A stretch of 64,000 bases of DNA from an uncultured Pirellulales bacterium (GTDB taxonomy: Bacteria; Planctomycetota; Phycisphaerae; Sedimentisphaerales; SM23-30): NCBI GenBank assembly GCA_964537505.1, contig CAZICK010000007.1, positions 311 through 64,310 on the forward strand, in the 5' to 3' direction. Within the stretch, counting starts at the first letter, position 1, and each line of letters opens with the position of its first letter. The notes beneath the pieces are model-generated. The model saw nothing but the letters and a program-made list of their open reading frames with translations. It did not search any database and was not told the origin of the DNA. Shown here piece by piece: positions 11,291-64,000 of the stretch. The translations under genes and the position numbers were made by a program.

Positions 11291-11328
11291 GAAAACGGTA
11301 GTTAGATACACATTCCCGCAGGTTGATA

Positions 11329-13702: not shown

Positions 13703-13720
13703 GAACCCGGCAGTTTCCGT

Positions 13721-14413
13721 TTATATTTCTATATTGGTAATGTCTTGTTCCAGTTCGCTGGGACGATAGAACATTTTAGGTTGAGGTATATCCACGCGAA
13801 AACCTAATTCACCCAATCGTCGCGCCAATCCCGGATAATACGGATCGGCCTTGAATGCCAGGATGAGATGATCGATAGCCTTTTCGTCGTTGCCTTGCGT
13901 AAAAAAGTGTTCGGCCAAGGTCATTAGAGGCTCAGCGTTGTGCGGTTCGGCTTTGGCCGCGGCGAGATAGGTAAGAATGGCGTGTTGTTCCATCTGGTCG
14001 CGGAAGAAACTTTCCGCTAAAGGTACAAACTCGCTGGCGGCATCTTTGTGTTCCAGGAATAAATTAGTTGCTTCTATAGATTTGTCAATTTGTTTGTTAC
14101 GATAAAGGGCCTTGATATAGGCCATTTGTGCAACGTCCATGGCCGGGTCAAAACGTACCGCTAATTCGTACTCCCAAATGGCATTGGTCCGATCGTTCAG
14201 TGTCTCATGGCACAGCCCCAGCCAGTAGTGCGAAGCGGAGTTTTCGTAATCGGATTCAAGGCTTTCCGTAAGCACTTTTTTGGCCATATCGTATTGATTG
14301 TGTTTGATATACACCTGAGCCCGACGGTTCAATCGAACAGCATCAAAGGTGCAACCCTGACAAACGATCAAAACCAGAATCAAAATTGTTGTGTTGCGTA
14401 TATAAGCTACCAT
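13721..14413 (-). CDS. TPR-repeat lipoprotein
   Basis: Signal peptide with lipobox 'LIVCQGC'. Several TPR-like repeats ('AIWEYELAVRFDP', 'ILTYLAAAKAEPHN'). Confidence 0.6.
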   Translation of the reverse strand: MVAYIRNTTILILVLIVCQGCTFDAVRLNRRAQVYIKHNQYDMAKKVLTESLESDYENSASHYWLGLCHETLNDRTNAIWEYELAVRFDPAMDVAQMAYIKALYRNKQIDKSIEATNLFLEHKDAASEFVPLAESFFRDQMEQHAILTYLAAAKAEPHNAEPLMTLAEHFFTQGNDEKAIDHLILAFKADPYYPGLARRLGELGFRVDIPQPKMFYRPSELEQDITNIEI

Positions 14414-14648
14414 TACTATTCTCCGTAAAAGCGTATGTGAGCCGGTTTTTCATGATTCCACGCTGCCGAACGGGACACTCAGCCAAACTGATCAGTAATT
14501 CTCCCTTTCAGCTATAAAATGCAGGTGTATCAAAGCTTTTCTCTTTTTGCAAGTAAAAACAGAGTCACTGAGCAAAAAAAATGGGCCGACCAAAGGGGAT
14601 CTGTGTGCGTCCTGGCATGAGCAGCGGATGCGTCCACCACCGTAATTG

Positions 14649-14813
14649 ATGTTAACGGATTCAATTCATTCCCGCATTAAATCCCTCTGGACAGGGCTGC
14701 GGGGGAATTGGCTGGAAGGCGTTCCACGTCTGATGGCGCACTGGAAGCTGGATGAGTTGAGTGGTACTAGAGTGAGTGGTAATGACGGAACGCTTAATGG
14801 TGATCCGACGTAA
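14649..14813 (+). pseudogene. Remnant of a LamG/concanavalin-like-domain secreted protein gene (N-terminal fragment only)
   Basis: The 54-codon ORF ends '...MAHWKLDELSGTRVSGNDGTLNGDPT*'. This is the characteristic 'HWKLDE..G...D.SGNGNDGTL.G.P.W' opening of LamG-domain proteins, cut by a stop after GDPT. It abuts the flagellin 3' end. Confidence 0.4.
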
Positions 14814-14839
14814 AGTCGAAGATATACTTCTTTGACTGA

Positions 14840-16237
14840 TTACGATAACAGGTTTACAGTGCTAAGTATAGAAAGTACGTTACTTGCGATCAGGCTCGAA
14901 GATGTTAGGGCTGTAATTCCGGCGTCCATAAGTAGTTGCAATCGTTCGTTGTTGGCGGTTTCGGCGACGTAATCAAGGTCTATTATGTTGCTTTTTGCTG
15001 TTTCCATAGCGGTTTTGGCGACGGTAAGGGAGTTTGTGGAACTCTCGATGGTGCAGGATTTGATCGCACCCCATCGTCCATGGTCCGCGGCTATCTGGGA
15101 AGAAGCTCGTTGTATGATTGCGGCGGCCGCTGAGTAGTTTTCCGACGCTATGTCGTTGTCGCCGCCGCTTTTGAGACTGCTGAGGTAGCCCAGGGAGCCG
15201 TTACCCAGATTGGTGGATCGCAGCGAGACTTGGCCGAAATTGATTCGGCTGGCAGCGGAGGTACCCAAGGCCCAGTCAGTTCCGTTACCGCGGACCGTGA
15301 AAATGGTGGTGCCGGCAGTGAAAGAGTCAGCGAGCGTAAGGGAAATAGAGGTGTTGCCACTGGTGTAGTAGGCATCGTTGCCACTTACCGATGTGCTGGC
15401 ACCATTGACGGTTGCAGTGGCATCGGCTCCATAGTCAACAGTCTGATTGCCATTACGCATGGTAAGACTACCCTGCTGAAAAGTGATTTCCACGTTGTTG
15501 CCCTCGCCGGCGTTCTCCGGTCGGAAATACACGTACGTATCGTATTCCGCCACGATGCCTGTACTGTCTGTCTCAAGGTTAACAAGAGCTGCTAATGTGG
15601 CTTTGGATTGACCTGCCTGCCAGGTAATCTGGGCTGACCCGTTTGGTCCAGTCAGCGTAAATATGACATCCGCGACGGGGTTTGCACCACCGTAAGATAT
15701 TTCGGCTTTAGTCGCCGCGACGGCCTCGACAGTATAGGTAACCGGGGTATCGCTGTGATTGGCAGATTTGACGCGGACATCAGCGAGATCGTCACTGTCC
15801 ACTCCGGAAACTGTATATGCGTACGATCCGTCGAGCAGATTAGTGTTGTTAAAAGAGGTCGTGTTGACCAAGGTGTCAATGGCGTCAATGGCGGTGTCGA
15901 TCTCGGCCTGGTAGGCGGCCTTATCTTCCTCAGTGGCTGCGCTGGCTGCGGCCAACTGTGCGGTCTCAATGGTGCCCATCAATGTCGATATTTCGGTTAG
16001 AGCGGCGTCAGCAGTATCGACAATGCTGCTTATTCTCTGTGCATTGCGGAGTTGACCGTCGATCCTGGCGATTTCAGCCGAGAAATTGCTAGCGGCAATG
16101 ATTCCGGAAGGATCGTCGGAAGCCCTGTTGACGCGGTAACCGGTGGTCAAACGCTCGTTTGACGTCGCCAGTTGCGTACCAAGCTCGATCAGATGACTGA
16201 CAATGCTGGATGAACCTAAATTATGTATGCTAAACAT
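14840..16237 (-). CDS. Flagellin
   Basis: 465 aa. Conserved N-terminal helix region 'LTTGYRVNRASDDPSGIIAASNF...IDGQLRNAQ' and C-terminal 'IIDLDYVAETANNERLQLLMDAG'. Thr/Ser/Ala/Gly-rich central domain. AGGAGG RBS. No other flagellar genes in the window. Confidence 0.85.
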   Translation of the reverse strand: MFSIHNLGSSSIVSHLIELGTQLATSNERLTTGYRVNRASDDPSGIIAASNFSAEIARIDGQLRNAQRISSIVDTADAALTEISTLMGTIETAQLAAASAATEEDKAAYQAEIDTAIDAIDTLVNTTSFNNTNLLDGSYAYTVSGVDSDDLADVRVKSANHSDTPVTYTVEAVAATKAEISYGGANPVADVIFTLTGPNGSAQITWQAGQSKATLAALVNLETDSTGIVAEYDTYVYFRPENAGEGNNVEITFQQGSLTMRNGNQTVDYGADATATVNGASTSVSGNDAYYTSGNTSISLTLADSFTAGTTIFTVRGNGTDWALGTSAASRINFGQVSLRSTNLGNGSLGYLSSLKSGGDNDIASENYSAAAAIIQRASSQIAADHGRWGAIKSCTIESSTNSLTVAKTAMETAKSNIIDLDYVAETANNERLQLLMDAGITALTSSSLIASNVLSILSTVNLLS

Positions 16238-16412
16238 CTCTTCCTTCTCACCTCCTGATTACCGTGGACCAGCCACAGCAGGTCTCAAGATACCATCTCA
16301 CTTGCGCCGGGCCATTTTGCGTCGAGCCGGTCGCATCACGTTAACTTGTTGTAATAACGTAAGTTAAGAACACATTCCTATTTGTTCGAGACACCCGTTC
16401 CCTGGATCGCAC

Positions 16413-16463
16413 AAAAAAGAGGCACCAACGACGTCACATTCAACGACGACGCTAGTGCCTCTT
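16413..16463 (-). terminator. Terminator-like hairpin plus T-tract on the minus strand, inside the flagellin upstream region
   Basis: On the minus strand, aagaggcac (16463-16455) pairs with gtgcctctt (16425-16417), followed by tttt. The loop is long (29 nt), so this is a weak call. Confidence 0.3.
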
Positions 16464-16507
16464 GAGGCGCTGTTGATGTAAGGACCCTGGTTTTGCCAAC
16501 AGCCGGC

Positions 16508-16534
16508 AAATCGGCCACAAAAAGCCTGCCTTCA
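16508..16534 (-). promoter_or_regulatory. Sigma28 (FliA)-like promoter candidate for flagellin (TGAA-N15-GCCGATTT)
   Basis: The minus strand reads cgTGAAggcaggctttttgtgGCCGATTTgcc, compared with the consensus TAAA-N15-GCCGATAA. It lies about 270 nt upstream of the flagellin ATG. Confidence 0.25.
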
Positions 16535-17220
16535 CGGGAGACTCTACGCTTAATTTCTGTGTCCAAATCTAAGATAAAATACAATTGTTCCTGAAGCAAA
16601 TGGTCGTGAATCGCGAGCAAGCAGAAAAAGCCATATTAAAGAATAACTATTCTGATTTTGCGGATTATCTGGTTTGGATCGCGGGCAATAGTTGCGTTAT
16701 CTCCGTTGCCATCGCGCAATTATTGCGTCTGATTTTTGGCGTTTTCTGCGTGGAAAGCTGGGTAATTGTCCTTGGCTATTATTTTTAGGCGGCAACAAAG
16801 GACAAGCTGATATTCCCATAACTTCTTTATTTGGAACCGTTTACGTATGATTTGGTTGTCTGTTGTCCCGTTTGTTCGGGCTGTGTTTAAGGGGGAATTG
16901 GCACAGTTTTTGCGGAACTGGTCTTTTGTAGCGGAAAATGTGGATAGAAATCGCGACGAGATGGTCGCTGCCAGGGTGGAGACCCGGTATATGAGCTTAA
17001 GGATGAGCTATGTTTCTTAATGAGCATGTACTTAATGACAATGTATTAGTTGTCTGTGGGGTATGCGCATACGTTCTATTGGGTAATGTTCGGTTTTTTG
17101 CCTTTTACGTTTGGTCGGACCAGAATTTACTTGTATTGGAGAGAGTGTAAAAATCCATTTTTGCGTAACAGGCCCTGTTGAATAAAAATTGGGTTAAAAA
17201 AACTGCGAAAGTAAATACCA

Positions 17221-17685
17221 ATGAGCGTGGGTCTTATTGTATCAAAACTGTTTGGTAACAATGCCGCTGCAGTTCAAACGGTAGCGGCAGCTTTCGTTGT
17301 TGTCGCGTTGAATGTGGGCACTATTTTGATGTTTGACGCTGTCAGCGGAGACCCTCAGTCGGCAGAGGGAACAGATACGATTGCCGCAATATCTGAAGGA
17401 TCGATCCCTGAACAGCAGGTAACCGTGGAGCCTGAGCAGGTGGAGGCTGTTATTATGGTTGACGGTGGCGGATGTGTAGGTATCGGCGAAGAAATGATCT
17501 CCGATGGCGACGGTGATGAAGGTGTCCAGGACTCCGGGCAAGATCAACAGAGGGATTTTGAGCGGGGGGAGGAATCATCCGGTTCGGATACGGAACCGGT
17601 AGAGATTACTGATCAGGGCAGCGTAACATCGGAGGTGCGTGTTCCAGAACGGCTTTTGGACAGAAGCCCATATCAGCCACCGTAA
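17221..17685 (+). CDS. Hypothetical acidic protein with N-terminal membrane anchor (first ORF of the polysaccharide cluster)
   Basis: 154-aa ORF with a hydrophobic N-terminus and a D/E/G-rich remainder. No recognisable family. Coding status rests on ORF length and position only. Confidence 0.4.
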   Translation: MSVGLIVSKLFGNNAAAVQTVAAAFVVVALNVGTILMFDAVSGDPQSAEGTDTIAAISEGSIPEQQVTVEPEQVEAVIMVDGGGCVGIGEEMISDGDGDEGVQDSGQDQQRDFERGEESSGSDTEPVEITDQGSVTSEVRVPERLLDRSPYQPP

Positions 17686-50239: not shown

Positions 50240-51670
50240 ATGGACTTGCCCATGAAGATAGCATTAATCAAACTTCCAGCCACTTATGCTGATTGGTATA
50301 AACAGCCGGCCCTGGGCATAGCGTATATAAGTGCCTGTCTCGAATCAAAAGGTTTTGATTGTAGAATATTCGATGCCTATTTCCATTCCTGGTCGCAAGA
50401 TGAATTGATATGCCGCGTCAAAGATTATAATCCTGATGTGATTGGCGTAACGGCAATGACGCACGAAATTAACCAGGCCGCCCGGGTCGCGGCCGAACTC
50501 AAATCGCTGCTGAACGTTCCAATAGTACTCGGAGGATGCCACGTAACCGCGTTGCCGGCCAAAACACTGGAAGAGTTCCCGGTTTTCGACTTTGGCATCT
50601 GTGGAGAGGGAGAACATACCACCATTGAACTGATGGAATTCCTACAGCAAAAAAGTTCGGCGTCACAACTTGATAATATCAAGGGTATTGTTTTCCGTAA
50701 GCAGGAGCAGGTAATAGTCAACGAAGCACGCCCGTTTATGACCTCCGCCGAGTTGGACGCTTTGCCATGCCCGGCTATGCATCACTACTATTTGGACAAC
50801 CCCCAGGCATTGGCGGCGCGAGATTCCTATTATGTTATGTTTAGCAGCAGGGGCTGTCCCTACAATTGCGCGTTCTGTATGCAGGTGCTGGGTAGAAAGG
50901 TCAGGCGAAGATCACCATTGCGCATTCTTCAGGAGATGGAATATGCTATTGAGCATTTCGGTGCTCATACGTTCAATTTTGCCGACGAAATCTTTCTGTT
51001 CGATAACCGGCAAACACGGGAACTGTTGGAATTATTTATCGAAAAAAACATTCCGGGGCGGATCAAATGGAGCGCCTTGACTCGTGCCAATTTTGTCAAT
51101 TCCGAGTTCATCGTTCTGGCCAAAAAAGCTGGCTGCTACAGCCTGGAAATGGGAGTCGAATCCGGAGACGACGAAATATTGAAAACCATCGACAAGGCAA
51201 TAACCGTTGAACAAGTCGAGCGGGCAGTCAAAATCATAAAGGATGCGGGAATTACGCTTGGCACCTACTATATTCTTGGACATCCGGGAGAAACACTCGA
51301 AACAGTGAAGAAGACATCGAACCTGGCGGTGAACCTGAATACTGATTTTATCGCCATAGGATTAATGGTGCCCTATCCCGGCACCCGAATCTTCGATTTG
51401 GCATTGCAGGGCAGGTACGGCTACCGCCTGCTCTCGCAGGACTGGAGCCAATACGATAAATACGGAGGGAAGGTGCTGGAAATCGAGGGTCTGCCTTACA
51501 GGCAATTATTGAAGTGGCAGAAAAAAACGCTCTTGAATTTATATCTGAAAAACTTCAGACTTATTGATTGCTTTAAGTTCTTTTGGAAAAGGCGGAAAGC
51601 ACTGTGCTTTATGATTAAGAAAAAGATGGGCATCAAAAGGCTTCTTGACCCGCGAGCGAACCCTGCGTAA
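50240..51670 (+). CDS. B12-binding-domain radical SAM protein
   Basis: N-terminal Rossmann-like 'IALIKLP...LGIAYISACLESKGFDCRIFDA...DVIGVTAM', then the radical SAM cluster motif 'SSRGCPYNCAFC'. Start is ATG 50240 or 50252. Confidence 0.85.
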   Translation: MDLPMKIALIKLPATYADWYKQPALGIAYISACLESKGFDCRIFDAYFHSWSQDELICRVKDYNPDVIGVTAMTHEINQAARVAAELKSLLNVPIVLGGCHVTALPAKTLEEFPVFDFGICGEGEHTTIELMEFLQQKSSASQLDNIKGIVFRKQEQVIVNEARPFMTSAELDALPCPAMHHYYLDNPQALAARDSYYVMFSSRGCPYNCAFCMQVLGRKVRRRSPLRILQEMEYAIEHFGAHTFNFADEIFLFDNRQTRELLELFIEKNIPGRIKWSALTRANFVNSEFIVLAKKAGCYSLEMGVESGDDEILKTIDKAITVEQVERAVKIIKDAGITLGTYYILGHPGETLETVKKTSNLAVNLNTDFIAIGLMVPYPGTRIFDLALQGRYGYRLLSQDWSQYDKYGGKVLEIEGLPYRQLLKWQKKTLLNLYLKNFRLIDCFKFFWKRRKALCFMIKKKMGIKRLLDPRANPA

Positions 51671-51699
51671 CTCTCAGGACAATACTCGAAAAGACAAAC

Positions 51700-52965
51700 A
51701 TGTCAGATACCAAAAACTGCCAAAAACCACCTGAACTACTGCTGCTATGCCAACTGTTTTATCCGGAACTTATCTCCACCGGACAAACGCTCACAGAATT
51801 ATGCGAGGAACTGACTGCCAGGGGAATGCGTATAGAAGTAGTTTGCGGCCCGCCCACAATTATGGATCGGAACTCAAAAATCCCCCGACACATAGACCAT
51901 CGGGGCATTCGTATAACCCGCGTGTGGGGCACACGATTCCCCAAACTTAATTTACCGGGTAGAATAATCAACCAGATTACATTTGCCGTATCGGTTTTCT
52001 TCTACCTGTTATTCGACCGCTCGAAACGGCCTGTCATGGTCCTTACCAATCCGCCATTTTTGGCCGTTTCCTGTGCACTGTTGAGAACCCTCAGAATAGG
52101 CAACCCTTACATCTATCTGATTTTCGATGTATATCCCGACACTGCCGTCCATCTGGGCCTGCTGAAAAAAAGAGGACTTCTGACCCGAATCTGGAACCGC
52201 ACTAACGCCTTTGTCTTCAAACATTCCGCCGCTATTATCGTTATTGGAAGATGTATGCGGGACGTGATCGCTGCCAAAATCAAATCCCACGAACGCAATG
52301 GCGAAAAAATTCACAATATCCACGTATGGAGCGACGATCGGTTGATACTATCCGCCAGGGGCAAACCAAACCCGTTTCTGGAAAAATGGAACCTCAAAGA
52401 CAAGTTCGTTGTCGGCTATTTCGGCAACATGGGCCGTTTCCACGACCTGGAAACTATCATGGAGGCCGCCAAAATCCTGAAAGAACAGGAAGATATTGTC
52501 TTTCTGTTTGTTGGTGAGGGCCAGAAAAAACAATACGCGATGGACTTCACCGCTAAATGGCACTTGACCAATTGCAGGTTCCATACCTACGTTGACCGGG
52601 AAAATCTGGGCTTTTCACTATCTACTGCGAACCTCAGCCTTGTATCCTTGTCCGCCGGCCAGGAGGGCCTTTCCGTACCTTCCAAAACTTTCGCATCAAT
52701 GGCCGCCGGCGTTCCAATTATCGCGATCATGTCCCCAAAATCAGAAATTGCTCGAATCGTCGTCGAAAACAAATGTGGACTTGTCGTAGAACTCGATGAC
52801 CACGAAGAATTGGCAAATACCATCTTAAGTCTTTATCATAACCGGAAAAAATTGAAAATAATGGGCGATAAGGCAAGACGGGCGATCGATACCAAATACA
52901 ACCTTCGCTCTGCCGCCCAGGCTTATTATGAGCTAATTGCTAACGTTAATCACCGACCATCATAG
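51700..52965 (+). CDS. Glycosyltransferase family 1/4 (WcaI-like)
   Basis: 'LLLCQLFYPELISTGQTLTELCEEL' N-terminus, 'GYFGNMGRFHDL', 'VPSKTFASMAAGVPIIAI'. Confidence 0.8.
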   Translation: MSDTKNCQKPPELLLLCQLFYPELISTGQTLTELCEELTARGMRIEVVCGPPTIMDRNSKIPRHIDHRGIRITRVWGTRFPKLNLPGRIINQITFAVSVFFYLLFDRSKRPVMVLTNPPFLAVSCALLRTLRIGNPYIYLIFDVYPDTAVHLGLLKKRGLLTRIWNRTNAFVFKHSAAIIVIGRCMRDVIAAKIKSHERNGEKIHNIHVWSDDRLILSARGKPNPFLEKWNLKDKFVVGYFGNMGRFHDLETIMEAAKILKEQEDIVFLFVGEGQKKQYAMDFTAKWHLTNCRFHTYVDRENLGFSLSTANLSLVSLSAGQEGLSVPSKTFASMAAGVPIIAIMSPKSEIARIVVENKCGLVVELDDHEELANTILSLYHNRKKLKIMGDKARRAIDTKYNLRSAAQAYYELIANVNHRPS

Positions 52966-52975
52966 GAGACTAATC

Positions 52976-54001
52976 ATGAAACAGGCTTTAGTTTGTGGCG
53001 CAGGAGGCTTCATAGGATCTCACTTGGCAAAAAGGCTCAAAGAAGAAGGATTTTGGATAAGGGGCGTGGACCTGAAATATCCCGAATTCGGCTCCATAGC
53101 GGCCGATGATTTCGTCATAGGGGATCTGCGCGACCCGGTACTCTGCAGGGACGTAACCGATCGACCATTCGATGAGGTCTATCAATTGGCTGCCGATATG
53201 GGCGGCGCCGGATACATCTTCACCGGTGAGCACGACTCCGAAGTCATGCACAATTCCGCGATGATAAACCTCAACATGGTTGATATATGCTCCAAAATCG
53301 GGGTCAAAAAGATTTTTTATTCCTCGTCCGCCTGTATTTATCCCGAATACAATCAGATGGACCCCGACAATCCAAAGTGTTCGGAAAATTCCGCTTATCC
53401 AGCCGCTCCGGACAGCGAATACGGATGGGAAAAACTCTTTAGCGAACGCATGTATTTGGCCTATCACAGAAATAACGGCTTAAACGTCCGCATCGCTCGG
53501 TTCCACAATATATTTGGCCCGCAGGGATCATGGAACAACGGCAAAGAAAAGGCGCCCGCCGCTCTGTCCCGCAAGGTTGCCGAGGCCGAAATCGGAGGTA
53601 AAATCGAAATGTGGGGCGACGGCAAACAAACACGTTCTTTCCTCTACATAGACGAATGCCTGGACGGCATTCGCAGACTGATGGACTCGGATCTCATAGC
53701 CCCCGTCAACATCGGCTCGGAAGAGATGATATCTATTAATGGCCTGGCCGAAATGATTATGGACATCGCCAACAAAAAACTGAGCATAAAACACATCAAT
53801 GGTCCCCTCGGCGTTCGCGGCAGAAACTCCGACAACGCATTCATTTACGAAAAGCTTGGCTGGAAACCCACCAGACCGCTCAGGGAAGGAATGACAAAAA
53901 CCTACCACTGGATAGAGCAACAGGTAAAAGACAGCCGATCCCAGCCGGCTAGAATCGAAACGATTCGTCCACTCGGCAGAAGAAGACTACTAAAGACATA
54001 A
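52976..54001 (+). CDS. GDP-mannose 3,5-epimerase (GME-like extended SDR)
   Basis: Block-by-block resemblance to plant and bacterial GME: 'CGAGGFIGSHLAKRLK', 'LAADMGGAGYI', 'SSACIYPEY', 'RFHNIFGPQGSWNNGKEKAPAALSRK', 'EMWGDGKQTRSFLYIDEC', 'GPLGVRGRNSDN'. AGGAG RBS before ATG 52976. Confidence 0.8.
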   Translation: MKQALVCGAGGFIGSHLAKRLKEEGFWIRGVDLKYPEFGSIAADDFVIGDLRDPVLCRDVTDRPFDEVYQLAADMGGAGYIFTGEHDSEVMHNSAMINLNMVDICSKIGVKKIFYSSSACIYPEYNQMDPDNPKCSENSAYPAAPDSEYGWEKLFSERMYLAYHRNNGLNVRIARFHNIFGPQGSWNNGKEKAPAALSRKVAEAEIGGKIEMWGDGKQTRSFLYIDECLDGIRRLMDSDLIAPVNIGSEEMISINGLAEMIMDIANKKLSIKHINGPLGVRGRNSDNAFIYEKLGWKPTRPLREGMTKTYHWIEQQVKDSRSQPARIETIRPLGRRRLLKT

Positions 54002-54123
54002 CCACGCCACCGGCCGGCCTTCCCTCGTGTTTTTTCCCGTCCGACAATACGCCAAAGTTGGCGAATTGCGACTGGTTTTGCCGACAATGACAATAGTTGT
54101 GTTGATGTTAAGGAAAATTATAA

Positions 54124-55254
54124 ATGAACATTCTTATATGCGGCAGTTCAGGCTTCATCGGAACACACCTGGTCAAACTGCTGGCGGACAATGGACACGA
54201 AATTACAGGCCTGGACCTGAATATGCCGCAAACTTATGCGGGACTTAGCGATTTCTATCAGGGTGATATCCTGGAAAAACAGGATATTCGTCCCGCTTTA
54301 CGCGGCACGGATTGCGTAATCAACCTGGCCGCCAGGCACAGCGATTTTGGTATTACCCGCCGGGAGTACTTTGAAACAAACGAGACCGGAAGCAGACGAC
54401 TTCTCGAATGTATGACTGACGCTCGCGTTGACAAGTACATATTCTTCAGTTCCGTAGCTGTGTATGGCGATCATCCGGAGGAGGCCGATGAAACCACCCT
54501 ACCGAGGCCGACCAGTCACTATGGCGATTCTAAGGTCGCCGCCGAAAACGTAACTCGCCAATGGGCCAGGGCAAACACTCGAAGGTCTGTTGTGATAATC
54601 AGACCCACACTGGTCTTTGGACCGGGCAATACTGCCAATATGTACAGCCTCATCCGCCAGATCGACCGCGGACAATTTTTTCACTTCGGCTCCGGTCGTG
54701 CAATCAAAAGTCTTTGTTACGTGGAAAATCTCACGGAGGCTACTGACTTTTGCCTCGACCGAATGGCCCCTGGCGTTGCCACATTCAACTACGTGGACAA
54801 GAAAGACCTCGAAGTCAACCAGATGATAGATATTATTTCCGGATCATTGAACAAAAAAGTCCCATCGGTTCATTTGCCTTTATGGTTGGGCCTGGGAATT
54901 GGGCGGGTATTTGACCTCGCCTCGAAACTGACCGGCAGAAACCTGGCGGTTTCCTCCGCACGTGTGAAAAAACTGACCACTCCAACAAGATTCGCCGCTG
55001 GGCTCATCAGAGACTGTGGTTTCCTCCCTCGATACTCCTTGAAAGAAGGCTTGCAAAACATGGTTGACTGGTACACAAACCGCCTCTACGGACGCCCGGA
55101 CTTGGCCGAACAGTTTCAAAAAATATCACAAACTTTACTTGATAAAGATATTGTATTCGATGTCCCACTTATGGTACAATTCCCAGGCCCTGTTGAGATC
55201 ACTGAATATATGCCCAGCCAACCATTGGCAGCGGTGGAAAGGATAGCCAAATGA
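54124..55254 (+). CDS. NAD-dependent nucleotide-sugar epimerase/dehydratase (extended SDR)
   Basis: '[18 protein letters not shown]' and catalytic 'YGDSK'. Substrate not inferable. Confidence 0.65.
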
Positions 55255-56276
55255 CCAAAAAAACTCTTGTCACCGGCATTACCGGGCAGGATGGCAGCTA
55301 CCTGGCGGAACTCCTTCTCTCAAAGGGTTATGAAGTGCATGGCCTGATCCGCAGGTCGAGCTCGTTCAACACTCAGCGCATTGACCACCTCTACCAGGAT
55401 CCGCACGAAACCTCCGCTCGCTTGTTTCTTCACTACGGCGACATGACCGACGGCATCGGTATTCGGGAGGTGCTTACCCGCGTTCAGCCCGACGAGGTGT
55501 ACAACCTTGCCGCCCAGTCGCATGTCCACGTCAGTTTCCATCAGCCCGTTTATACCGCTCAGGTGGGAGCCATTGGCACCATTCGTCTGCTGGAGGCCAT
55601 TCGCGATACCGGGATAAATATCCGTTTCTATCAGGCCTCCTCCAGCGAAATGTTCGGACAGGCAATCGAAACTCCCCAGTCCGAAAAAACACCTTTTCAC
55701 CCACGCAGTCCTTACGGTTGCTCGAAGGTTTACAGTTATTGGCAGACCATTAATTATCGTGAAAGTTATGATATGTTCTGCTGTAACGGCATACTATTCA
55801 ATCACGAATCGCCGCGACGCGGTGAAACTTTTGTCAGCCGAAAAATAACACGCGCCGCCACACGCATCAAGGAAGGGCTACAGAAAAAACTCTACCTCGG
55901 CAATCTCGACGCCAAACGAGACTGGGGATTTACAGGTGATTACGTCGAGGCCATGTGGCTTATGTTGCAGGCCGACAAACCGGACGATTACATAATCGCC
56001 ACTGGCCAAACACATTCGATACGCGAGTTTCTTGACCTGGCTTTTGCTCGACTTGAGATGGACTGGCACGATTATGTCGAAGTTGACCCTCGTTATTTCA
56101 GACCGGCCGAAGTCGATGTCCTGCAGGGCGACGCCTCAAAGGCCAAAAAACTGCTCAACTGGCAGCCCAAAGTCAATTTCGAACAACTCGTTGCTATGAT
56201 GATCGACGCCGACTTGGCTCTGGCCAGACAGGAACGCGTCCTGGCGGAACACAACGCCAAAAATCTTCCTGACTGA
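55251..56276 (+). CDS. gmd: GDP-mannose 4,6-dehydratase
   Basis: '[43 protein letters not shown]', '[11 protein letters not shown]', 'SPYGCSKVY', '[15 protein letters not shown]'. Confidence 0.92.
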
Positions 56277-56315
56277 CACAATGACAGCCCGATTTGTTCC
56301 AAAGGACACTTACCA

Positions 56316-57269
56316 ATGCTCAAGCTCGACTGTGAACGCATTGTCATTACCGGGGGAGATGGTTTTCTCGGCCGGCATCTACAGCAGCAGCTCTTACACA
56401 GTGGCCTCAAAAAAGAAAACCTCCTCATACCACGCATTGAACAATACGACCTTACGAGTGAATCCGCTGTCACCGCCATGTACCGTGACATGCAGCCCAC
56501 CGTTGTAATTCACCTGGCTGCCGAGGTAGGCGGTATCGGCGCCAATCAGGCCAATCCCGGCCGATTCTTTTATGCCAACATGGCTATGGGAATGCACCTG
56601 ATCGAACATGCACGCCTCTACGGCCTGAAAAAATTCGTACAGGCAGGTACCATTTGCGCCTATCCAAAGTTCACCCCGGTACCATTCCAGGAGAAAAACC
56701 TCTGGAACGGCTATCCTGAGGAGACCAACGCCCCTTACGGTATCGCCAAAAAAGCCCTATTGGTTATGCTCCAGGCTTATCGTCAGCAGTATAACCTTAA
56801 CGGCATATATCTGTTGCCCGTCAACCTGTACGGCCCAGGCGACAATTTCGACCTTCAGACCAGTCATGTCATCCCAGCTATGATCCGAAAATTCTGCCAT
56901 GCCGTCGATACCGACGCACAGGAAGTTATCCTTTGGGGTACCGGCTCAGCCAGCCGCGAGTTCCTTTATGTCGAAGACGCCGCCCGCGCAATCACCCTCG
57001 CCACCACCAACTACGACGGCCAAAAACCGGTCAACCTTGGCTCCGGCTTTGAAATCACCATTAAGAACCTCGCCGAAAAAATAAAATCCATCACCGGCTT
57101 CCAGGGACGCATAACCTGGGACACCTCCAAACCCGACGGTCAGCCACGCCGCTGCCTCGACGTCACACAGGCCAAAAACCTCTTCAACTTCACCGCCGCG
57201 ACACCTTTCGACCTGGGCCTCGAACAAACCATCGACTGGTGGCGACTACAACAACCAAATCAGCCCTGA
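56316..57269 (+). CDS. fcl: GDP-L-fucose synthase (GDP-4-keto-6-deoxymannose 3,5-epimerase/4-reductase)
   Basis: '[24 protein letters not shown]', '[10 protein letters not shown]', '[25 protein letters not shown]', '[17 protein letters not shown]'. Confidence 0.88.
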
Positions 57270-57429
57270 CCTTCCATTTCCCAAACCAAACGCCTGCCAT
57301 GGTTTATACTGCCACGAAACAGCTTGCCTTATAAACTCCTTCCGATATAATAAGCAATACACAGGAAAAAGTGCGACACATAAAACCGCGTAAGCGAAAT
57401 CGCACATCAAAACGATTGAGTCTTTACTT

Positions 57430-58488
57430 ATGTCAGACCACAATTCACAATATGTCGATTTCGAAGATCACGACCGCTATTCCCGGCAGATGTTTTTCGC
57501 CCCCATTGGCACAAGCGGTCAGCAGAGGTTGGGAGCGGCAAAAGTAACGCTGATCGGCTGTGGCGGACTGGGGGCGTCCTTGGCACAGACAATGGTCCGC
57601 GCCGGAGTGGGCCATCTGCGGATTGTGGACCGCGACTTCCTGGAGTTGAACAACTTACAGCGGCAGGTGCTTTTCGACGAAGACGATGTAAAAGAAAACC
57701 TGCCAAAGGCCGAAGCCGCCGCCCGTAAACTGCGCCGCATAAACCGCAATGTCAAAATTACACCTATCGTTGCCGACGCCAACCACGAAAGCATCGAATC
57801 TCTCATCGAGCGAGCCGATTTGATCCTGGACGGAACCGATAATCTGCAAACCCGATTCCTGATTAACGATGCAGCCGTAAAAAACTCGATCCCCTGGATA
57901 TACGGCGCCTGCATTGGCGCCAATGGTATGGCCATGGTAATTACCGCGGGCGGTAAGCCGTGTTTACGCTGCCTGATCGAAGCGCCGCCGGATGCCGGGC
58001 AATTGGAAACCTGTGAAACAGCCGGAATCATTGCTCCCATCGTGACAATCGTAGCCGGCTTTCAGGCGGCAGAGGCGATCAAATTACTCACCGGAAACCA
58101 CGAAGCGGTCAATCGAAAATTTGTCACCTTCGACTTATGGGAAAACCGCTTCCATCAAATGTCACTGGACGCCCTCACCAAAGGATGCTCCTGCTGTGGG
58201 CAGAATAATTTTGAGTACCTCGCCGGCAGGGGCGGTCTGAACATTGTAAATCTGTGCGGCCGAAACTCCGTTCAGATTCGCCCAGATACTCACGGCAAAA
58301 AAATCGACCTGACCGCGTTGGCCCAAAGACTCAAAGAAACCGGCAAGGTTATCCAAAACGAATTTATACTGCGGCTTAACCTGCCCGACCACCCAATCAC
58401 CATCTTCCCCGACGCCCGGGCCATCATAAAAGGCACTAACAATATCGACGAAGCCCGCAGCCTTTACGACAAATACATCGGCCATTAA
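57430..58488 (+). CDS. ThiF/MoeB/HesA-family E1-like adenylyltransferase
   Basis: 'YSRQMFFAPIGTSGQQRLGAAKVTLIGCGGLGASLAQTMVRAGVGHLRIVDRDFLELNNLQRQ' and CxxC pairs ('CLRC', 'CSCC'). No sulfur-carrier gene is adjacent. Confidence 0.8.
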   Translation: MSDHNSQYVDFEDHDRYSRQMFFAPIGTSGQQRLGAAKVTLIGCGGLGASLAQTMVRAGVGHLRIVDRDFLELNNLQRQVLFDEDDVKENLPKAEAAARKLRRINRNVKITPIVADANHESIESLIERADLILDGTDNLQTRFLINDAAVKNSIPWIYGACIGANGMAMVITAGGKPCLRCLIEAPPDAGQLETCETAGIIAPIVTIVAGFQAAEAIKLLTGNHEAVNRKFVTFDLWENRFHQMSLDALTKGCSCCGQNNFEYLAGRGGLNIVNLCGRNSVQIRPDTHGKKIDLTALAQRLKETGKVIQNEFILRLNLPDHPITIFPDARAIIKGTNNIDEARSLYDKYIGH

Positions 58489-58618: not shown

Positions 58619-58691
58619 TCCCCGATAGCTCAATTGGTAGAGCGAGCGGCTGTTAACCGCTAGGTTTCTGGTCCGAGTCCAGATCGGGGAG
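58619..58691 (+). tRNA. tRNA-Asn (anticodon GTT)
   Basis: Manual cloverleaf: acceptor tccccga/tcgggga, D arm gctc-aattggta-gagc, anticodon arm agcgg-cTGTTAa-ccgct, variable aggtt, T arm tctgg-tccgagt-ccaga, discriminator g. CCA is not encoded. Confidence 0.85.
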
Positions 58692-59190: not shown

Positions 59191-62100
59191 CTAATATTCA
59201 ATCTCCTCCAACCAATATTTGGCTAATTCAGCAAAGTCTAACAGGTTAACGATACCATCTATTGGCTCCGGCGCGATATCAGCCGTCAAAGGTCCTATAG
59301 TCTTCAGCCATTCTGCCAACAATACAGTCATATCATCCATATCCACATCACGGTCTGGCTCAAAGTCAGCAGAGGCAAAAACAAGTACGCTGGCTGTGTT
59401 ATTTAGCAGTGATACTTCGTCTGAGCCATCGGAGTCGGGATTAACAGTCATGTCAACACGGCCACTCCCAACGGTCTGCGAAAGGGAGACTATGACATCC
59501 ACGGAATCTCCAGGATCGAGCGAGCTTACGGTCTCTTCCCCAAGAGTTTGCCCCTCGTATGTGACGCGAGCTACATTAGAGCTGCTTGGCTTGGCACCTG
59601 TATTACGGACTGTTACAGAAGCTGTTGTACCATCGAGTTGCGGACTCCATGGCTCGGCCTGCAGATCGGGCAGAACCGGCACCTGACCAGAGGTGGTATT
59701 GTTATCATCATTCGCTTCATCTACCTGGTCATCGCTATCAGCTATAACCACCAGAGTACAAATGCCTGGTGTTTCACCTGCTACATCCCATGTAAACTGT
59801 GAACTGGTGGATGTGCCGGAATCAAGTGAGCCTATCTGACTTGTGAAAACAACATCACCGGTTTCGCTGTCTTTGCGAACTTCACAGGCAAAGGCTTCAG
59901 AATCTGCATCACCATCGTTTCGAACCGAAAAACCAACCAGTACTGTATCAGACCCCGGATATCCAATAACAGAAAGATTAGTTGCCCGGAGATCCGGCTT
60001 AAATAAGATAACACTGGCTTTGTTGTTAGTGATATCATCCGTTTCTGGAATTGTATCGTCAGGATCGACTACCACATAAATGCTATGAGATTGGCCATCA
60101 TTAGGATCCTGCCAGCTTGCCGATGCCAATGCAACCTGGCCGGGCAGCATAGAACTTATTGTCTGTGAGTCAATAAGTATGCCGGAATCGCCAGGATCAC
60201 CATCATAGAATCTTACCAGCACGTCTTCGACCGTAAAATCACCTGACAGATGAATATCCGCGGATACAACGCAACTGGCACTTCTTGTCACGGGATATGG
60301 GTCAAAGGAGATATCATCCGTCGAGACAGACAAGTCCTTTTCCGGCACATGTTCCAGCAGATAGATGTCTGAGGCCCCTATCACCGGCGGTTCGTTCGGG
60401 TCTGAAAGATCGATACGCCGTTTGACATAGCCGGCCAGAATATTTCCGCCGCTTTCGGTAAGTGATATCATCGTCTCTGCCCCCTGGTCGTGGGTTATCT
60501 GCTGCGGATCGCCCCAGGCTTGTAAGTCGGCATCATATACACTGTAGTAGATATCAGAAAATTCCTCAGATACAGATACCCAGAAAAGAATAAGCTTACC
60601 GGCCTCATTCTTTATCAACTTGGGTTCTGCGATGCCATCGGTTTCAATCGCCAACTCCGGTGAGTCCCAATCGCTGCCATTCCACCGGGCAAACCACAAT
60701 TGGTCAACAGAGGTTTCGGTTTCATCAGGCAATGTTGTCGATACCATCTTCCTGACCCAAACGGCCAGCGGAGTATCGGTAGAATCCGTTGCCATCTGGA
60801 CTGCGGTGTAGGAATTTGGATCGGTAGTAAGTTGCTCATCTGTTCCCCATACCCCGCCAATTTCACGAGCACGGGCCGCAACTTGCCGATCATCTGCCGT
60901 GGCGGAATTATAGTCCGTATCCTCTATGTAGGCCAGGAATTCATGTGTGGCTGTCCGACAAACAGAAGGCGGAGATGTGGTCACCAGGTCGCTGGCCACG
61001 ACATAAGGAGAACCAAACGTCGAACCATTCCAGTCAGCAGCCATCATATCCAATAGCGGGCTGATCTCCTCATCGTGCCAGACAGGAATGGAATTAGTTG
61101 CGCTCGCTATCCAGCAAACCCGCAAATCATCCGTTGGTAGTGTCTCGAACCAGGGTAGCAAATCAGCGTAACTGTTTGCTGTAATGTCCTGAGGAGCTGC
61201 CCACACTTCGCCCACGGTATCATACTTTGAAAAAGTTATCTCAAATCCCGGCAGTACATCGCGAGGACCTGTCTCAAGTCCGTCAGGTTCGGGAGCGCTC
61301 ATCCAGACAGCGATTTCCTTGCCGCTGGTATCTATTGCCGCCACAGGGAAACTGTCAGGATTCAAGTTATCAGTTAAAGGGGCATGTGAAGTCCAATTTG
61401 AACCATTCCATCTTGCATAGTAGATTTCCTGGTGCTTACCCGTGGGTTTGCCCGCATCGTCATAGGTAAACAGCAATAACCCTTCATTACTCGTAGCAGC
61501 CACCGAGGGTGTCGGCATCGTTCCAACATTCAGAATCGGATCAGGAAGACCACCAACGGCTAAGATACCAAGACCACCTTTTGTGTCGGGAAACACGCAA
61601 TATCCCTCAGGAGCATCGAGATACTCACGTTCAACCAGCACAATTTGCTTCTCATCGGAGGGTGTGCCAAGGGCATACATCCCGCCGGTTTCGGGACAGG
61701 TATAAATATTGAATACCCATTCCTCTTCTATTTTCCACCAACCGCATTCAACAACGAATTTCGCTTCAAGGTCAAATGCCACCTGCTTGATATATTCATT
61801 CACACAGCAGTTGCCGGAATCAGGTGGAAACTGAAGGACAATGTATGGTTTGCCCCCGATCGTTCCAGCAATGTAATAAATACTGCCTTCAGAACCGGCA
61901 CCGACCGTTCCAGCTACGGTAACGCCAATGTTCAACTCTGCGTTCTTAAACTTCAAGCCTGCCACGATTGCCGGTTCACCCTCTTCCATACCCACGGTTC
62001 CACTGACCTCGGGTGCTATACTGGCCTGGAAGTAGGGGCAATATCCCGTATGACAGCAGCCCGTCCATTGACATAACAACGGAACTCGCGGGAATAGGAA

Positions 62101-62928
62101 AGTAAAACTGCCTGCAAGTTCGGCTGATACATCAGTCAGCTTAAGTTCTGGATAGAATTCACCATCGCCTGACAGAGTGGCTGATATTTCACCCTTTCTC
62201 TTGCTGCCGCAGGAAGCTTCCGCTCCCCATTTACCACCCAAACCGAACAAGCCCGTCAGTCCGGCGCCATCGCCAAATCTTGGTTGAGCCGACAGTTCCC
62301 ACTCGAAGTTAAGCGGGTTGATCTCTACTCCCCACTTGCCGCCGATTTCAGGGATGCTCTTCGGAATATTTATGGTTCCACCGGCTCCGCCTTTGAGTAC
62401 CTCCACCTCACCGTAGAAAGTTAGTTTTCCCGTAGATTCAATTTTGTAGTTAATAGGCCCTTTCTTGCTCTCCATGGAAATCGCCCATTGGGGCAATTCC
62501 AGGCCCCACAAGCTAAGGCTGTATTGTTGCGAAACGGCACCATCGTCCGCCACGGCATAAGCAATAAGCTCATTCTTGGCTCCACTGCGCGAATACTCCA
62601 AGTCGCAGCCCATGTTATATATTGTCTGCGCACTATTGCCCCCAGTTACCACCTCGGTATCAGCCCCGTTGAGATTGAATACCACCCTGGATGGTGTCTT
62701 GTCATCCCAATCCACCTCTGCGGTAATAGTATTGATAACATCGACACCTTCAGCAAACACACCAATGTAAGTCGATCTCAGCGAAGTTATGCGGAATTCT
62801 TCACCGTCCCGGTTGTCGATGGTAAAGATATTCGATAGCCCAGAGCCGGTTTCCGCACACGCAATTCCGGACATGCCCGCCAGAATCACCCCACACATCA
62901 ATGTTCGTTTAATACCGTTCATCACCAA
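59191..62928 (-). CDS. Large secreted protein: Cys-rich N-terminal region, W-rich propeller-like repeats, three CARDB-like domains, dockerin-like C-terminus
   Basis: Signal peptide 'MCGVILAGMSGIACA'. Repeats of type 'YYARWNGSNWTSHAPLT' and 'WFARWNGSDWDSPELA'. Three CARDB-like modules each ending '...VDPDDTIPETDDITNNKASV', '...DSDDQVDEANDDNNTTSG' and '...NPDSDGSDEVSLLNNTASV'. C-terminal 'DGIVNLLDFAELAKYWL'. Confidence 0.8.
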   Translation of the reverse strand: MVMNGIKRTLMCGVILAGMSGIACAETGSGLSNIFTIDNRDGEEFRITSLRSTYIGVFAEGVDVINTITAEVDWDDKTPSRVVFNLNGADTEVVTGGNSAQTIYNMGCDLEYSRSGAKNELIAYAVADDGAVSQQYSLSLWGLELPQWAISMESKKGPINYKIESTGKLTFYGEVEVLKGGAGGTINIPKSIPEIGGKWGVEINPLNFEWELSAQPRFGDGAGLTGLFGLGGKWGAEASCGSKRKGEISATLSGDGEFYPELKLTDVSAELAGSFTFLFPRVPLLCQWTGCCHTGYCPYFQASIAPEVSGTVGMEEGEPAIVAGLKFKNAELNIGVTVAGTVGAGSEGSIYYIAGTIGGKPYIVLQFPPDSGNCCVNEYIKQVAFDLEAKFVVECGWWKIEEEWVFNIYTCPETGGMYALGTPSDEKQIVLVEREYLDAPEGYCVFPDTKGGLGILAVGGLPDPILNVGTMPTPSVAATSNEGLLLFTYDDAGKPTGKHQEIYYARWNGSNWTSHAPLTDNLNPDSFPVAAIDTSGKEIAVWMSAPEPDGLETGPRDVLPGFEITFSKYDTVGEVWAAPQDITANSYADLLPWFETLPTDDLRVCWIASATNSIPVWHDEEISPLLDMMAADWNGSTFGSPYVVASDLVTTSPPSVCRTATHEFLAYIEDTDYNSATADDRQVAARAREIGGVWGTDEQLTTDPNSYTAVQMATDSTDTPLAVWVRKMVSTTLPDETETSVDQLWFARWNGSDWDSPELAIETDGIAEPKLIKNEAGKLILFWVSVSEEFSDIYYSVYDADLQAWGDPQQITHDQGAETMISLTESGGNILAGYVKRRIDLSDPNEPPVIGASDIYLLEHVPEKDLSVSTDDISFDPYPVTRSASCVVSADIHLSGDFTVEDVLVRFYDGDPGDSGILIDSQTISSMLPGQVALASASWQDPNDGQSHSIYVVVDPDDTIPETDDITNNKASVILFKPDLRATNLSVIGYPGSDTVLVGFSVRNDGDADSEAFACEVRKDSETGDVVFTSQIGSLDSGTSTSSQFTWDVAGETPGICTLVVIADSDDQVDEANDDNNTTSGQVPVLPDLQAEPWSPQLDGTTASVTVRNTGAKPSSSNVARVTYEGQTLGEETVSSLDPGDSVDVIVSLSQTVGSGRVDMTVNPDSDGSDEVSLLNNTASVLVFASADFEPDRDVDMDDMTVLLAEWLKTIGPLTADIAPEPIDGIVNLLDFAELAKYWLEEIEY

Positions 62929-62960: not shown

Positions 62961-63027
62961 AGAAGCGAGAAGTCAGGAGCAAAAAAAGCAGGAAAACCAC
63001 TACTTCTTCTCGCTTCTCGCTTCTCAG
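62961..63027. repeat. Heptamer repeats and an inverted copy at the 3' side of the second four-helix-bundle gene
   Basis: agaagcgagaag (62961-62972) is the reverse complement of cttctcgcttct (63006-63017 and 63013-24). 63003-63027 is a 7-bp-period array, cttcttc/tcgcttc/tcgcttc/tcag, that contains the gene's stop codon. Confidence 0.75.
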
Positions 63028-63395
63028 TTCTTATTCCCTTCCAACTTACTAATAAAACTATTCAACATTTTTTCAACTTCGTTTGCATCAGCCAGCGCAC
63101 CTTCGTATGCCTCACCATCTACATAGCCAAGGTCCAGGGCTATCTCGACCTGGGTTTCCAATTCATATAAGGAACCGCAGGCAATTCTCAGGAATCGCAG
63201 AAAGTCTGAATCCGAACGTCGCCCATAACCTTCAGCAATATTACTCGGAACCGAGACAGCACATCGCCTTATCTGAGAAGTCAGGCCGTAAGTATCTTCT
63301 TTCGGAAAGCTTTTGCTCAGTGCATAAATGTTCTTCACCAGAGCCTTAGACTTCTGCCAAACCAAAAGATCCCGAAATGTCCTAATATTACTCAT
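63024..63395 (-). CDS. Four-helix-bundle protein (23S rRNA-intervening-sequence / Avd family)
   Basis: 123 aa. 'FRDLLVWQKSKALVKNIYALSKSFPKEDTYGLTSQIRRCAVSVPSNIAEGYGRRSDSDFLRFLRIACGSLYELETQVEIALDLGY' is the textbook pattern of this family. Confidence 0.88.
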   Translation of the reverse strand: MSNIRTFRDLLVWQKSKALVKNIYALSKSFPKEDTYGLTSQIRRCAVSVPSNIAEGYGRRSDSDFLRFLRIACGSLYELETQVEIALDLGYVDGEAYEGALADANEVEKMLNSFISKLEGNKN

Positions 63396-63430
63396 CTTCT
63401 CACTTCTTCCTTCTCACTTCTCGCTTCTTC
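63396..63430. repeat. Five tandem heptamers immediately upstream of the second four-helix-bundle gene
   Basis: cttctca/cttcttc/cttctca/cttctcg/cttcttc on the plus strand. On the coding strand this is gaagaag cgagaag tgagaag gaagaag tgagaag, running straight into the ATG. Confidence 0.85.
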
Positions 63431-63440
63431 ATAATCGGAC

Positions 63441-64000
63441 TCAACGACACACCCGGAATCCTATGTAGCCGAACGTGAAGTCCAGGTCGCTGATGTTGCG
63501 GAACGAGACCTCGCAGAAGTCGTCGAAGTGGTTCCAACTGCCGCCGCGGATAACGCGGTAGCCTCCACTGCAATCCGTGTAATAACAACTGCTTGTCCAC
63601 TCCCACACGTTGCCTGCCATGTCATTCATCCCATAGCCGTAAGATGAGTAATGGTTAACCGGACTCGTATAGGGGTAACTTGTCAAGCCAAGCGGGTTGG
63701 CATCGTCATAGTTCGCTTTACTCTGGTTTATCGTGGTTCCGCAGCCATAGATGTAACTTCCATTATAGTCGGCTACCGCCTGCCATTCCCACTCCGTGGG
63801 CAGGCGCCAGCCGTAATAGTTACAGAATGCAGTAGCACCATACCAGCTTACCTCAACCACCGGATGATTGGCCATACTGTAACCATCCCGAGTACGAACA
63901 CTGAAAGTACCGCCGGAATAGGTAATCTGGCTGTATGAGCTTGCCGCGTAGGTGTCAAAATAGGGCTGAGAATGACTGGTGTCACTCATTGCGTACACAG
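63441..64000 (-). CDS. Formylglycine-generating-enzyme (FGE-sulfatase) / C-type-lectin-fold protein, 5'-truncated by the window edge; C-terminus resembles a DGR variable region
   Basis: 'HPVVEVSWYGATAFCNYYGWRLPTEWEWQ', 'MAGNVWEWT' and 'YRVIRGGSW...IGFRV' are the FGE-fold hallmarks. The expected N-terminal part of the domain is missing, so the gene continues beyond 64000. Confidence 0.8.
   Translation of the reverse strand, partial: VYAMSDTSHSQPYFDTYAASSYSQITYSGGTFSVRTRDGYSMANHPVVEVSWYGATAFCNYYGWRLPTEWEWQAVADYNGSYIYGCGTTINQSKANYDDANPLGLTSYPYTSPVNHYSSYGYGMNDMAGNVWEWTSSCYYTDCSGGYRVIRGGSWNHFDDFCEVSFRNISDLDFTFGYIGFRVCR

Follow-up and report, generated by a model that had tools for sequence, protein, structure and literature searches.

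The stretch of DNA analysed here, called the window throughout, comprises 64,000 nucleotides of contig CAZICK010000007.1 from an uncultured Pirellulales bacterium and corresponds to positions 46743-110742 of the 131-kb contig JGI 3300009171 Ga0105101_10000003. At its far end, three genes follow one another on the minus strand: a gene with an FGE-sulfatase domain that is cut by the window end, a small gene for a four-helix-bundle protein and a long gene for a secreted protein with a CARDB domain (Table 1). The 3' end of the first gene resembles the variable region (VR) of a target of a diversity-generating retroelement (DGR). The other parts of such an element, a reverse transcriptase (RT), a template repeat (TR) and an Avd protein, are not found beside it. 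An earlier note, made from the letters of the window, had described this arrangement as DGR-like without a visible retroelement.

Table 1. Features at the end of the window, listed in the direction of transcription.
Feature	Position	Strand	Basis
DGR-type target gene, 3' part (185 codons and stop)	63441-64000	-	PF03781, 115.7 bits
VR, 120 nt homologous to DGR TRs, from TACCGCGTT to the stop codon	63441-63560	-	Codon bias and comparison with TRs
Mutated codons of the VR	63462-63533	-	19 NNC, 0 NNT, 5 other
Retained 5' part of the VR 3' end (GGATTCCGGGTGTGTCGTTGAGT), similar to an initiation of mutagenic homing (IMH) element	63439-63461	-	Alignment with the TRs and VRs of L223 and L174
Purine-only spacer, heptamers GAAGCGA GAAGTGA GAAGGAA GAAGTGA GAAG	63396-63438	-	TRF, period 7 at 63396-63428
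Four-helix-bundle protein gene (123 aa), TIGR02436/PF05635 type	63024-63395	-	Profile matches
Second heptamer array (GAGAAGC x3), right after the four-helix-bundle stop codon	62961-63025	-	TRF at 63006-63025
CARDB-domain secreted protein gene (1243-1245 aa)	59191-62928	-	PF07705

The minus-strand open reading frame (ORF) at 63441-63998 covers profile positions 63-255 of 255 of the FGE-sulfatase domain, and its C-terminus reads RVIRGGSWNHFDDFCEVSFRNISDLDFTFGYIGFRVCR, directly followed by the stop codon. The whole protein, recovered from locus L002 (8606-9955), is 449 aa long. It consists of a signal peptide, an N-terminal immunoglobulin (Ig)-like domain, a Flg_new_2 repeat and the FGE-sulfatase/C-type-lectin-fold domain. 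Around 1860 homologues were found, mostly in Sedimentisphaerales/Phycisphaerae, and the locus itself was recovered by exact-protein look-ups in at least 10 assemblies, independent of one another but all belonging to one sample series. In one assembly (sample 3300027723, L001:8607-9668), the gene carries a 1-bp deletion about 230 nt past the window end (in gene orientation), which leaves a product of only 353 aa, due either to a pseudogenising population variant or to an assembly error.

Comparison of the homologues reveals a fixed C-terminal frame, RVxRGGSW-x6-C-TVS-x-R-x4-P-x7-GFRVCR followed by the stop codon, in which the x positions are hypervariable and rich in Y, D, N, S, G, H and F. The form present in the window, W-x6-C-x4-R-x4-(P/L)-x7-GFRVCR and stop, is common to more than 100 homologues, with the VR at the C-terminus of the C-type-lectin/FGE fold. 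The FGE/C-type-lectin gene with a variable-region-like end, as proposed in the earlier note, is borne out by both the profile match and this frame. Being hypervariable on a fixed scaffold, the C-termini of the homologues support a DGR origin.

The codons in this region are distinctive as well. Between 63465 and 63533, 19 of the 23 codons are of the form NNC (five TTC and four GAC among them), as counted before. This is the highest NNC count of any 23-codon stretch in the 41 long ORFs of the window, where the overall fraction of C at third positions is ~0.26. Codon statistics over the full 449-aa gene also mark the run as unusual: the third positions of the 24-codon variable zone are 19 C, 0 T and 5 other, versus 130, 130 and 150 in the remainder of the gene (Fisher P = 4e-6). 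In a survey of 102 VRs from 79 Phycisphaerae/Sedimentisphaerales loci, the ratio C/(C + T) of the variable zones forms a continuum from 21C/0T to 1C/13T, with an upstream gene background of 0.46. The window VR (19C/0T) ranks second among the 102. Those VRs that are followed by the post-stop motif CTG[GC]ATTT have a mean ratio of 0.87, and those without it one of 0.68.

Complete DGR cassettes with the same kind of target are found in two relatives. Locus L174, on contig CAXXMR010000015.1 of a metagenome-assembled genome (MAG), contains a target, an Avd, an RT (PF00078), a TR encoding YRVLRGGGWNNNDNNCTVSNRNNNNPNNMNNNNGFRVCR and a stop codon, and a CARDB gene. Its Avd scores 91.5 with NF033474 (cut-off 80) and 60.4 with PF22296 (cut-off 40). 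Locus L223 (ENA ERZ24794645 NODE_22828) consists of a target, a bAvd, an RT with a TR encoding YRVIRGGSWNNNDNNCEVSNRNNNNPNNTNNNNGFRVCR and a stop codon, a CARDB gene and a second target. Both cassettes share with the window the target architecture (signal peptide, N-terminal domain, FGE domain and a VR ending in GFRVCR and stop), the VR scaffold codons and the downstream CARDB neighbour. Genes in this Sedimentisphaerales DGR lineage are arranged as target-avd-RT-TR, the TR lying within the 3' end of the RT ORF; this departs from the order target-avd-TR-RT given in the earlier note. In the corresponding RT clade (P0123-P0268), the called ORF as a rule continues across the TR in the +1 frame, with tails like ...RRQLEQQRQQL.GLEPQQQQPEQHEQQQR.PGVSL, and a protein database is therefore enough to screen for TR sequences.

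The window VR differs from the L223 TR almost solely at template adenines. Changes are present at 20 of the 39 adenine sites and at 5 of the 81 non-adenine sites (Fisher P = 4.5e-8), and three of these five are synonymous. For comparison, the two VRs of L223 itself show 24 and 19 adenine changes relative to their TR and no non-adenine change. With the L174 TR, the window VR has 21 adenine and 8 non-adenine differences. In a set of 1.23 Mb of related loci that does not include L223, the L174 TR is the sole true TR and by far the best match to the window VR when adenine differences are tolerated; every paralogous VR there has at least 18 non-adenine mismatches. At synonymous sites, the scaffold codons of the window VR agree with the TR.

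Given the family frame, the scaffold codons and the concentration of differences at the adenines of a real TR, the C-terminus encoded in the window can be regarded with great confidence as a true, DGR-made VR. It would have been written by mutagenic retrohoming, in which a cDNA is copied from the TR with the template adenines randomised, so that AAC codons would become NNC; the template would belong to the DGR lineage found in Sedimentisphaerales. The earlier note had traced the NNC codons to adenine mutagenesis of an AAC template, and the distribution of differences over adenine and other sites agrees with this. The adenine bias, the identity of the scaffold codons at synonymous sites, the excess of NNC over NNT and the synteny with complete cassettes (see below) make it very improbable that an ordinary FGE paralogue with a fast-evolving loop simply lies beside a common small gene, with a DGR never involved. 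This holds even though FGE paralogues are very numerous (at least 599 stretches matched a pattern, and 524 of those listed were confirmed by tblastn) and a TR lies within 10 kb of only 1 of the 105 VRs surveyed. Among the explanations offered earlier, an orphan, decayed or remote DGR target thus stands, and coincidence is contradicted by the adenine-specific differences.

The window locus fits known DGR biology and nothing contradicts it. In phage BPP-1 (mtd-avd-TR-brt) and in the TvpA-type targets of Treponema denticola, adenine-specific mutagenesis is likewise directed to AAC codons of a C-terminal C-type-lectin/FGE VR (PMC3240598, PMC5758913), and the GC-rich 3' end of the VR is another trait common to the window and canonical DGRs. 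The window locus differs from them in having no RT, TR, Avd, hairpin or complete IMH after the VR, and the Sedimentisphaerales lineage differs in its avd-RT-TR order, as opposed to avd-TR-RT. A DGR origin is thus recognisable from a lone VR, by its NNC codons and by adenine-specific differences to the TR of a related genome. It suggests that much of the very large FGE surface-protein repertoire of Sedimentisphaerales was shaped by DGRs.

The surroundings of the VR can be compared directly with the complete cassettes. The order in the window is target, four-helix-bundle gene and CARDB gene, compared with target-bAvd-RT-TR-CARDB in L174 and L223. The genes behind the TR in these two loci are homologous to the CARDB gene of the window along its whole length, and all three have a common ribosome-binding/start region (CAATTAGGAGATT..GATGAAYGGTAT). 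Where the earlier note saw heptamer repeats, no RT and an unrelated gene below position 63024, the repeats and the lack of an RT are confirmed, but the gene is this CARDB gene, a conserved neighbour of complete DGR cassettes. Nothing resembling an Avd, an RT, a TR or the post-TR spacer was detected in the window between the VR stop codon and the CARDB ribosome-binding site. The four-helix-bundle gene, with a heptamer array on either side and an inverted repeat after the second array, takes up this interval. The bAvd, RT, TR, post-VR motif and hairpin of L223 and L174 are thus all missing from the window, which has a TIGR02436 gene and heptamer arrays instead. An apparent fusion of FGE and CARDB was also seen in P0057.

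Other relatives carry incomplete versions of the same locus. In L157 and L175, the CARDB gene (with 46% and 61% protein identity to that of the window, respectively) lies directly after the target. The VR of L157 is fused to the post-TR spacer (5039-5300; 76% identity over 255 nt, E = 1.5e-47), so its avd and RT were probably deleted by recombination between VR and TR. Weak traces of a similar fusion are visible in L175 (10708-10985). In L195, a 26-aa fragment that is 92% identical to the L174 Avd is located just after the VR (2457-2534). A single syntenic locus would then display several stages of DGR loss: the complete cassette, the VR x TR deletion, the Avd fragment and the replacement by a four-helix-bundle gene. 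In the window, the bAvd-RT-TR block between the target and the CARDB gene would have been lost, with a generic TIGR02436 gene bracketed by purine heptamer repeats in its place.

The sequence just behind the VR is also altered. Beyond the stop codon, the window remains homologous to the TR and to active VRs for just 2 nt, whereas the TR/VR homology in L174 and L223 runs 18 nt past the stop (TGAGT and 13 nt ending in CCTG) and is followed by GATTTT..CCTTTGC. An 8-bp GC hairpin with a GNA loop comes after the motif in L174 and behind the second target (T2) of L218, a further DGR locus described below. Post-VR motif and hairpins are present in L174, L183, L218 and L223. Of the 64 VRs in the survey that end in a stop codon, 18 have CTG[GC]ATTT, and some others show looser variants of it. 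The spacer of the window (63396-63438) contains neither a hairpin (DNA fold, minimum free energy -1.05 kcal/mol, z = +1.5) nor the conserved post-VR motif. In phage BPP-1, efficient homing depends on the IMH and the downstream hairpin, and the two together suffice to direct it to a heterologous gene (PMC3240598). By analogy with BPP-1, the window VR would have lost part of its recognition signal, since the post-stop homology and the hairpin are gone. The replacement that displaced bAvd, RT and TR would also have cost the target the 3' half of its IMH-like element and its post-VR hairpin.

The post-VR hairpins of L174 (10765-10785), L218 (13254-13272) and L223 (9628-9650) carry GCGAAGC or GCGTAGC cores. 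The DNA fragment d(GCGAAGC) is an unusually stable mini-hairpin. In BPP-1, the loop sequence of the hairpin matters for homing (PMC3240598).

A cognate RT and TR were sought within and beyond the window. When both strands of the window were scanned for a TR with adenine differences tolerated, no candidate did better than chance, the best one having 40 non-adenine mismatches in 130 nt; the earlier note had likewise seen no TR-like copy there. Tblastn with the L174 RT detected no RT in the window, and none was present in the 10 kb past either end or among the Pfam calls over 83 kb of Ga0105101_10000003, which covers an extension beyond position 64000 as suggested in the earlier note. Avd and TR are equally absent from the window and from the 10 kb beyond either end. 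Around 146 RT homologues were retrieved with the L174 and L223 RTs from a collection of 5.8 billion proteins that includes the source metagenomes, and none of their ORF tails contains a TR that fits the window VR. Closest is the tail of P0126, the RT of L223 itself, with at least 2 forced and 5 actual mismatches.

A metagenome scan with a fully two-fold-degenerate, adenine-tolerant TR pattern was uninformative, as all 120 matches are poly-A tracts. A scan of viral contigs for an L223-type TR returned no match. An anchored-pattern scan of genome contigs for the window VR also gave no match, so the VR of the source species is absent from the GTDB representatives. In the related loci, TR/VR pairs were sought by direct adenine-tolerant scanning, which is more sensitive than a self-blastn screen of 80 loci and placed a TR within 10 kb of 1 of the 105 VRs. 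The RT P0220, picked by a multi-contig fingerprint as a cognate candidate, was rejected as it comes from unrelated samples.

One complete DGR does occur in the samples of the window. The RT P0133, with eight shared samples, lies on contig Ga0105101_10000032 of JGI 3300009171 (L218), whose tetranucleotide profile is the closest to that of the window among 26 comparison loci (r = 0.944). Co-occurrence and tetranucleotide correlation together are suggestive of a common genome. Positions 8433-17599 of this contig contain a two-target DGR in the order T1, bAvd, RT with embedded TR (~11070-11190, GFRLAL class), GIY-YIG nuclease gene, T2, TIGR02436 gene and CARDB gene. Inside the repeat, all TR/VR differences are at adenines. 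Its TR does not match the window VR, with 29 non-adenine mismatches in 120 nt. The window VR is identical in nine assemblies and no variant occurs in its 90% cluster, but six assemblies likewise show no variation in the two VRs of L218. The invariance of the window VR is therefore uninformative on activity, because the VRs of a complete DGR are invariant too, and invariance across samples was rejected as a test of inactivity.

Relatives have the cassette at this locus and the window does not, the recognition elements are gone as well, and no cognate TR was found in a collection that includes the source metagenomes; the VR is therefore most likely orphaned. A recently orphaned and now frozen DGR target is the explanation we favour, as probable though far from certain. 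The loss of the elements and of the cognate TR would mean that diversification has stopped, and recently, and the protein would keep the last ligand-binding surface written by the DGR. Several observations weigh against this explanation. The VR is fully fresh, with no NNT among its 19 codons ending in a pyrimidine. The related allele L131, in which heptamers and a four-helix-bundle gene also follow the VR, is equally fresh (19/0), which leaves two options: losses that took place very recently in both, or continued rewriting of the VRs. The requirement for IMH and hairpin is known from phage BPP-1, which belongs to another lineage (PMC3240598), and several fresh VRs of the family are likewise without the post-stop motif. 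The view of the genome is limited to 83 kb of one contig out of several Mb, and the absence of a cognate TR beyond this contig rests on the protein database alone. Finally, remote targets more than 100 kb from their RT are well documented (PMC5758913).

The last point is part of the case for a remote and still active target, a possibility that we hold to be unlikely but worth serious attention. A cognate DGR elsewhere in the genome, with an RT and a TR of the CEVS/CGC/ATA type, would rewrite the VR in trans, and the retained GC-rich part of the VR 3' end would be enough for homing. The NNC signature is undecayed (19C/0T against a 50:50 gene background), and the family offers a precedent in L183: its VR and 33 nt downstream match the L174 DGR, located on another contig of the same MAG. 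Moreover, L131 and the window have the scaffold codons CGC and ATA, unlike the L223 TR, which points to a distinct TR in this lineage, and the complete DGR in eight shared samples means that the machinery exists in the community. That DGR, the sole one found in those samples, has the incompatible TR described above, and none of the ~146 closest RT homologues provides a compatible one. The remote targets of Treponema and of Lineage 4 DGRs (Wu et al. 2018, PMC5758913) resemble the window in that the VR lies far from any RT, but they have a matching TR in the same genome, and none was found for the window in the searches made. L183 keeps the post-VR recognition elements, whereas the post-stop homology, the conserved motif and the hairpin are missing in the window. 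The lack of variants in the 90% cluster and in the nine assemblies adds little against a remote target, given the equal invariance in L218.

From the window VR, the 5' part of a cognate TR is predicted as TGG AAC AAC AAC RAC AAC AAC TGC RAG GTC TCG AAC CGC AAC AAC AAC AAC, and the directly adjoining 3' part as CWG AAC AAC ACG AAC AAC AAC ATA GGA TTC CGG GTG TGT CGT TGA. Its fixed non-adenine anchors are, e.g., TGCRAGGTCTCGAACCGCAAC...ACGAACAACAACATAGGATTCCGGGTGTGTCGT.

The allele L131 comes from another sample. Its target (611-1924) is identical to that of L002 (8606-9955) over nearly all of the first ~200 residues. The FGE domain of L131 is not that of the window and is close to L174's, its VR has one extra codon, and neither the four-helix-bundle gene (51% identity) nor the gene behind it is the same as in the window. 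These differences suggest module swapping by recombination at the domain boundary.

The gene that stands in place of the cassette encodes a full-length, high-scoring member of the TIGR02436/PF05635 proteins, also known as the 23S rRNA intervening-sequence protein family. It scores 139.8 with TIGR02436 (cut-off 24), 142.1 with PF05635 (cut-off 33.8) and 142.4 with NF008911 (cut-off 137). With the curated DGR-Avd models, it stays below the cut-offs (NF033474, 30.4 vs. 80; PF22296, 26.2 vs. 40), both of which are passed by the true Avds of L174, L223 and L218. BLASTP detected no similarity to the true Avds of the lineage (E = 0.4). Its closest PDB entries are 2gsc (E = 8e-26) and 2rld, both uncharacterised. 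A diverged bAvd was considered and rejected, since the protein is a high-scoring TIGR02436 member. By its profile scores, the product belongs to the Avd superfamily and is not the DGR's own Avd, so the family assignment made before is right at the superfamily level and fails at the NF033474 and PF22296 cut-offs. A PF05635 match beside an FGE gene does not equal an Avd call.

Three copies of this four-helix-bundle subfamily were found, each right after a fresh FGE-type VR: the one of the window, that of L131 and that following T2 of L218, the last being 59% identical to the window protein. A hidden Markov model (HMM) built from the three detected no further copy in 1.23 Mb centred on ~100 FGE genes. 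To our knowledge, TIGR02436/PF05635 genes located repeatedly right after DGR-type VRs and flanked by heptamer arrays have not been described.

A functional tie of these genes to DGR targets can be imagined, either as an Avd-like factor for diversification in trans or as a mobile cassette that inserts at the target 3' end or its hairpin. The position of all three copies fits such a tie, T2 of L218 being a bona fide and active-looking target of the DGR next to it, and so does the HMM result. In the ~104 kb assigned to the population, every FGE-VR gene precedes an Avd-superfamily four-helix-bundle gene, and the similarity to the Avd models is weak but real (26-30 bits). The three cases are not independent, however: all stem from the same samples or lineage, and the target-four-helix-bundle-CARDB module is present in two, so the pattern may reflect common descent. 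Outside DGRs, moreover, TIGR02436 proteins are widespread, and a PF05635-like gene is present in a restriction-modification operon of the same window; the subfamily stays under the curated Avd thresholds, and heptamer arrays also occur without a four-helix-bundle gene. We consider a functional tie improbable, and a specific association of heptamer-bracketed TIGR02436-type genes with the 3' ends of DGR targets in this lineage is equally doubtful. If true, Avd-like factors would make diversification in trans independent of the usual IMH and hairpin, or small cassettes would home to the hairpin of DGR targets. It would also be the first functional context for the very large orphan protein family TIGR02436.

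The PF05635-like gene just mentioned (2537-3148, plus strand; 198-203 aa) matches this profile weakly and is missed by the HMM of the subfamily. It is located in an apparent type III restriction-modification operon, with an N6_N4_Mtase gene at 419-2500 and a ResIII/RE_endonuc gene at 3145-5826.

The heptamer repeats are not limited to the target locus. Intergenic 7-nt tandem arrays, whose unit varies by site (AGGCACG, GAGAAGY, CAGATTT, AGAAGTT, TAGGCAT and GCAGTAA), are present in the window (61-125, 63006-63025 and 63396-63428), in L002 (8290-8380), in L131 (1925-2000 and 2370-2400) and in L218 (13295-13335 and 13700-13735). They often bracket four-helix-bundle genes in direct or inverted orientation and are also found upstream of other genes. 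These arrays recall the STRR heptamers of cyanobacteria. The second array of the target locus has an inverted copy (CTTCTCGCTTCT) ~35 nt downstream; together they are a putative hairpin that could act as a transcription terminator.

Beyond the 3' end of the CARDB gene, at a distance of 500 bp, a tRNA-Asn gene (anticodon GTT; 58619-58691, plus strand) lies between the CARDB gene and a gene of the ThiF family. A group of seven genes at 51649-58485 (epimerase/dehydratase sugar-nucleotide genes where annotated, and ThiF) has third-position C fractions of 0.34-0.47. Most other genes of the window have ~0.18-0.27, and this group is either a compositionally distinct or a highly expressed block.

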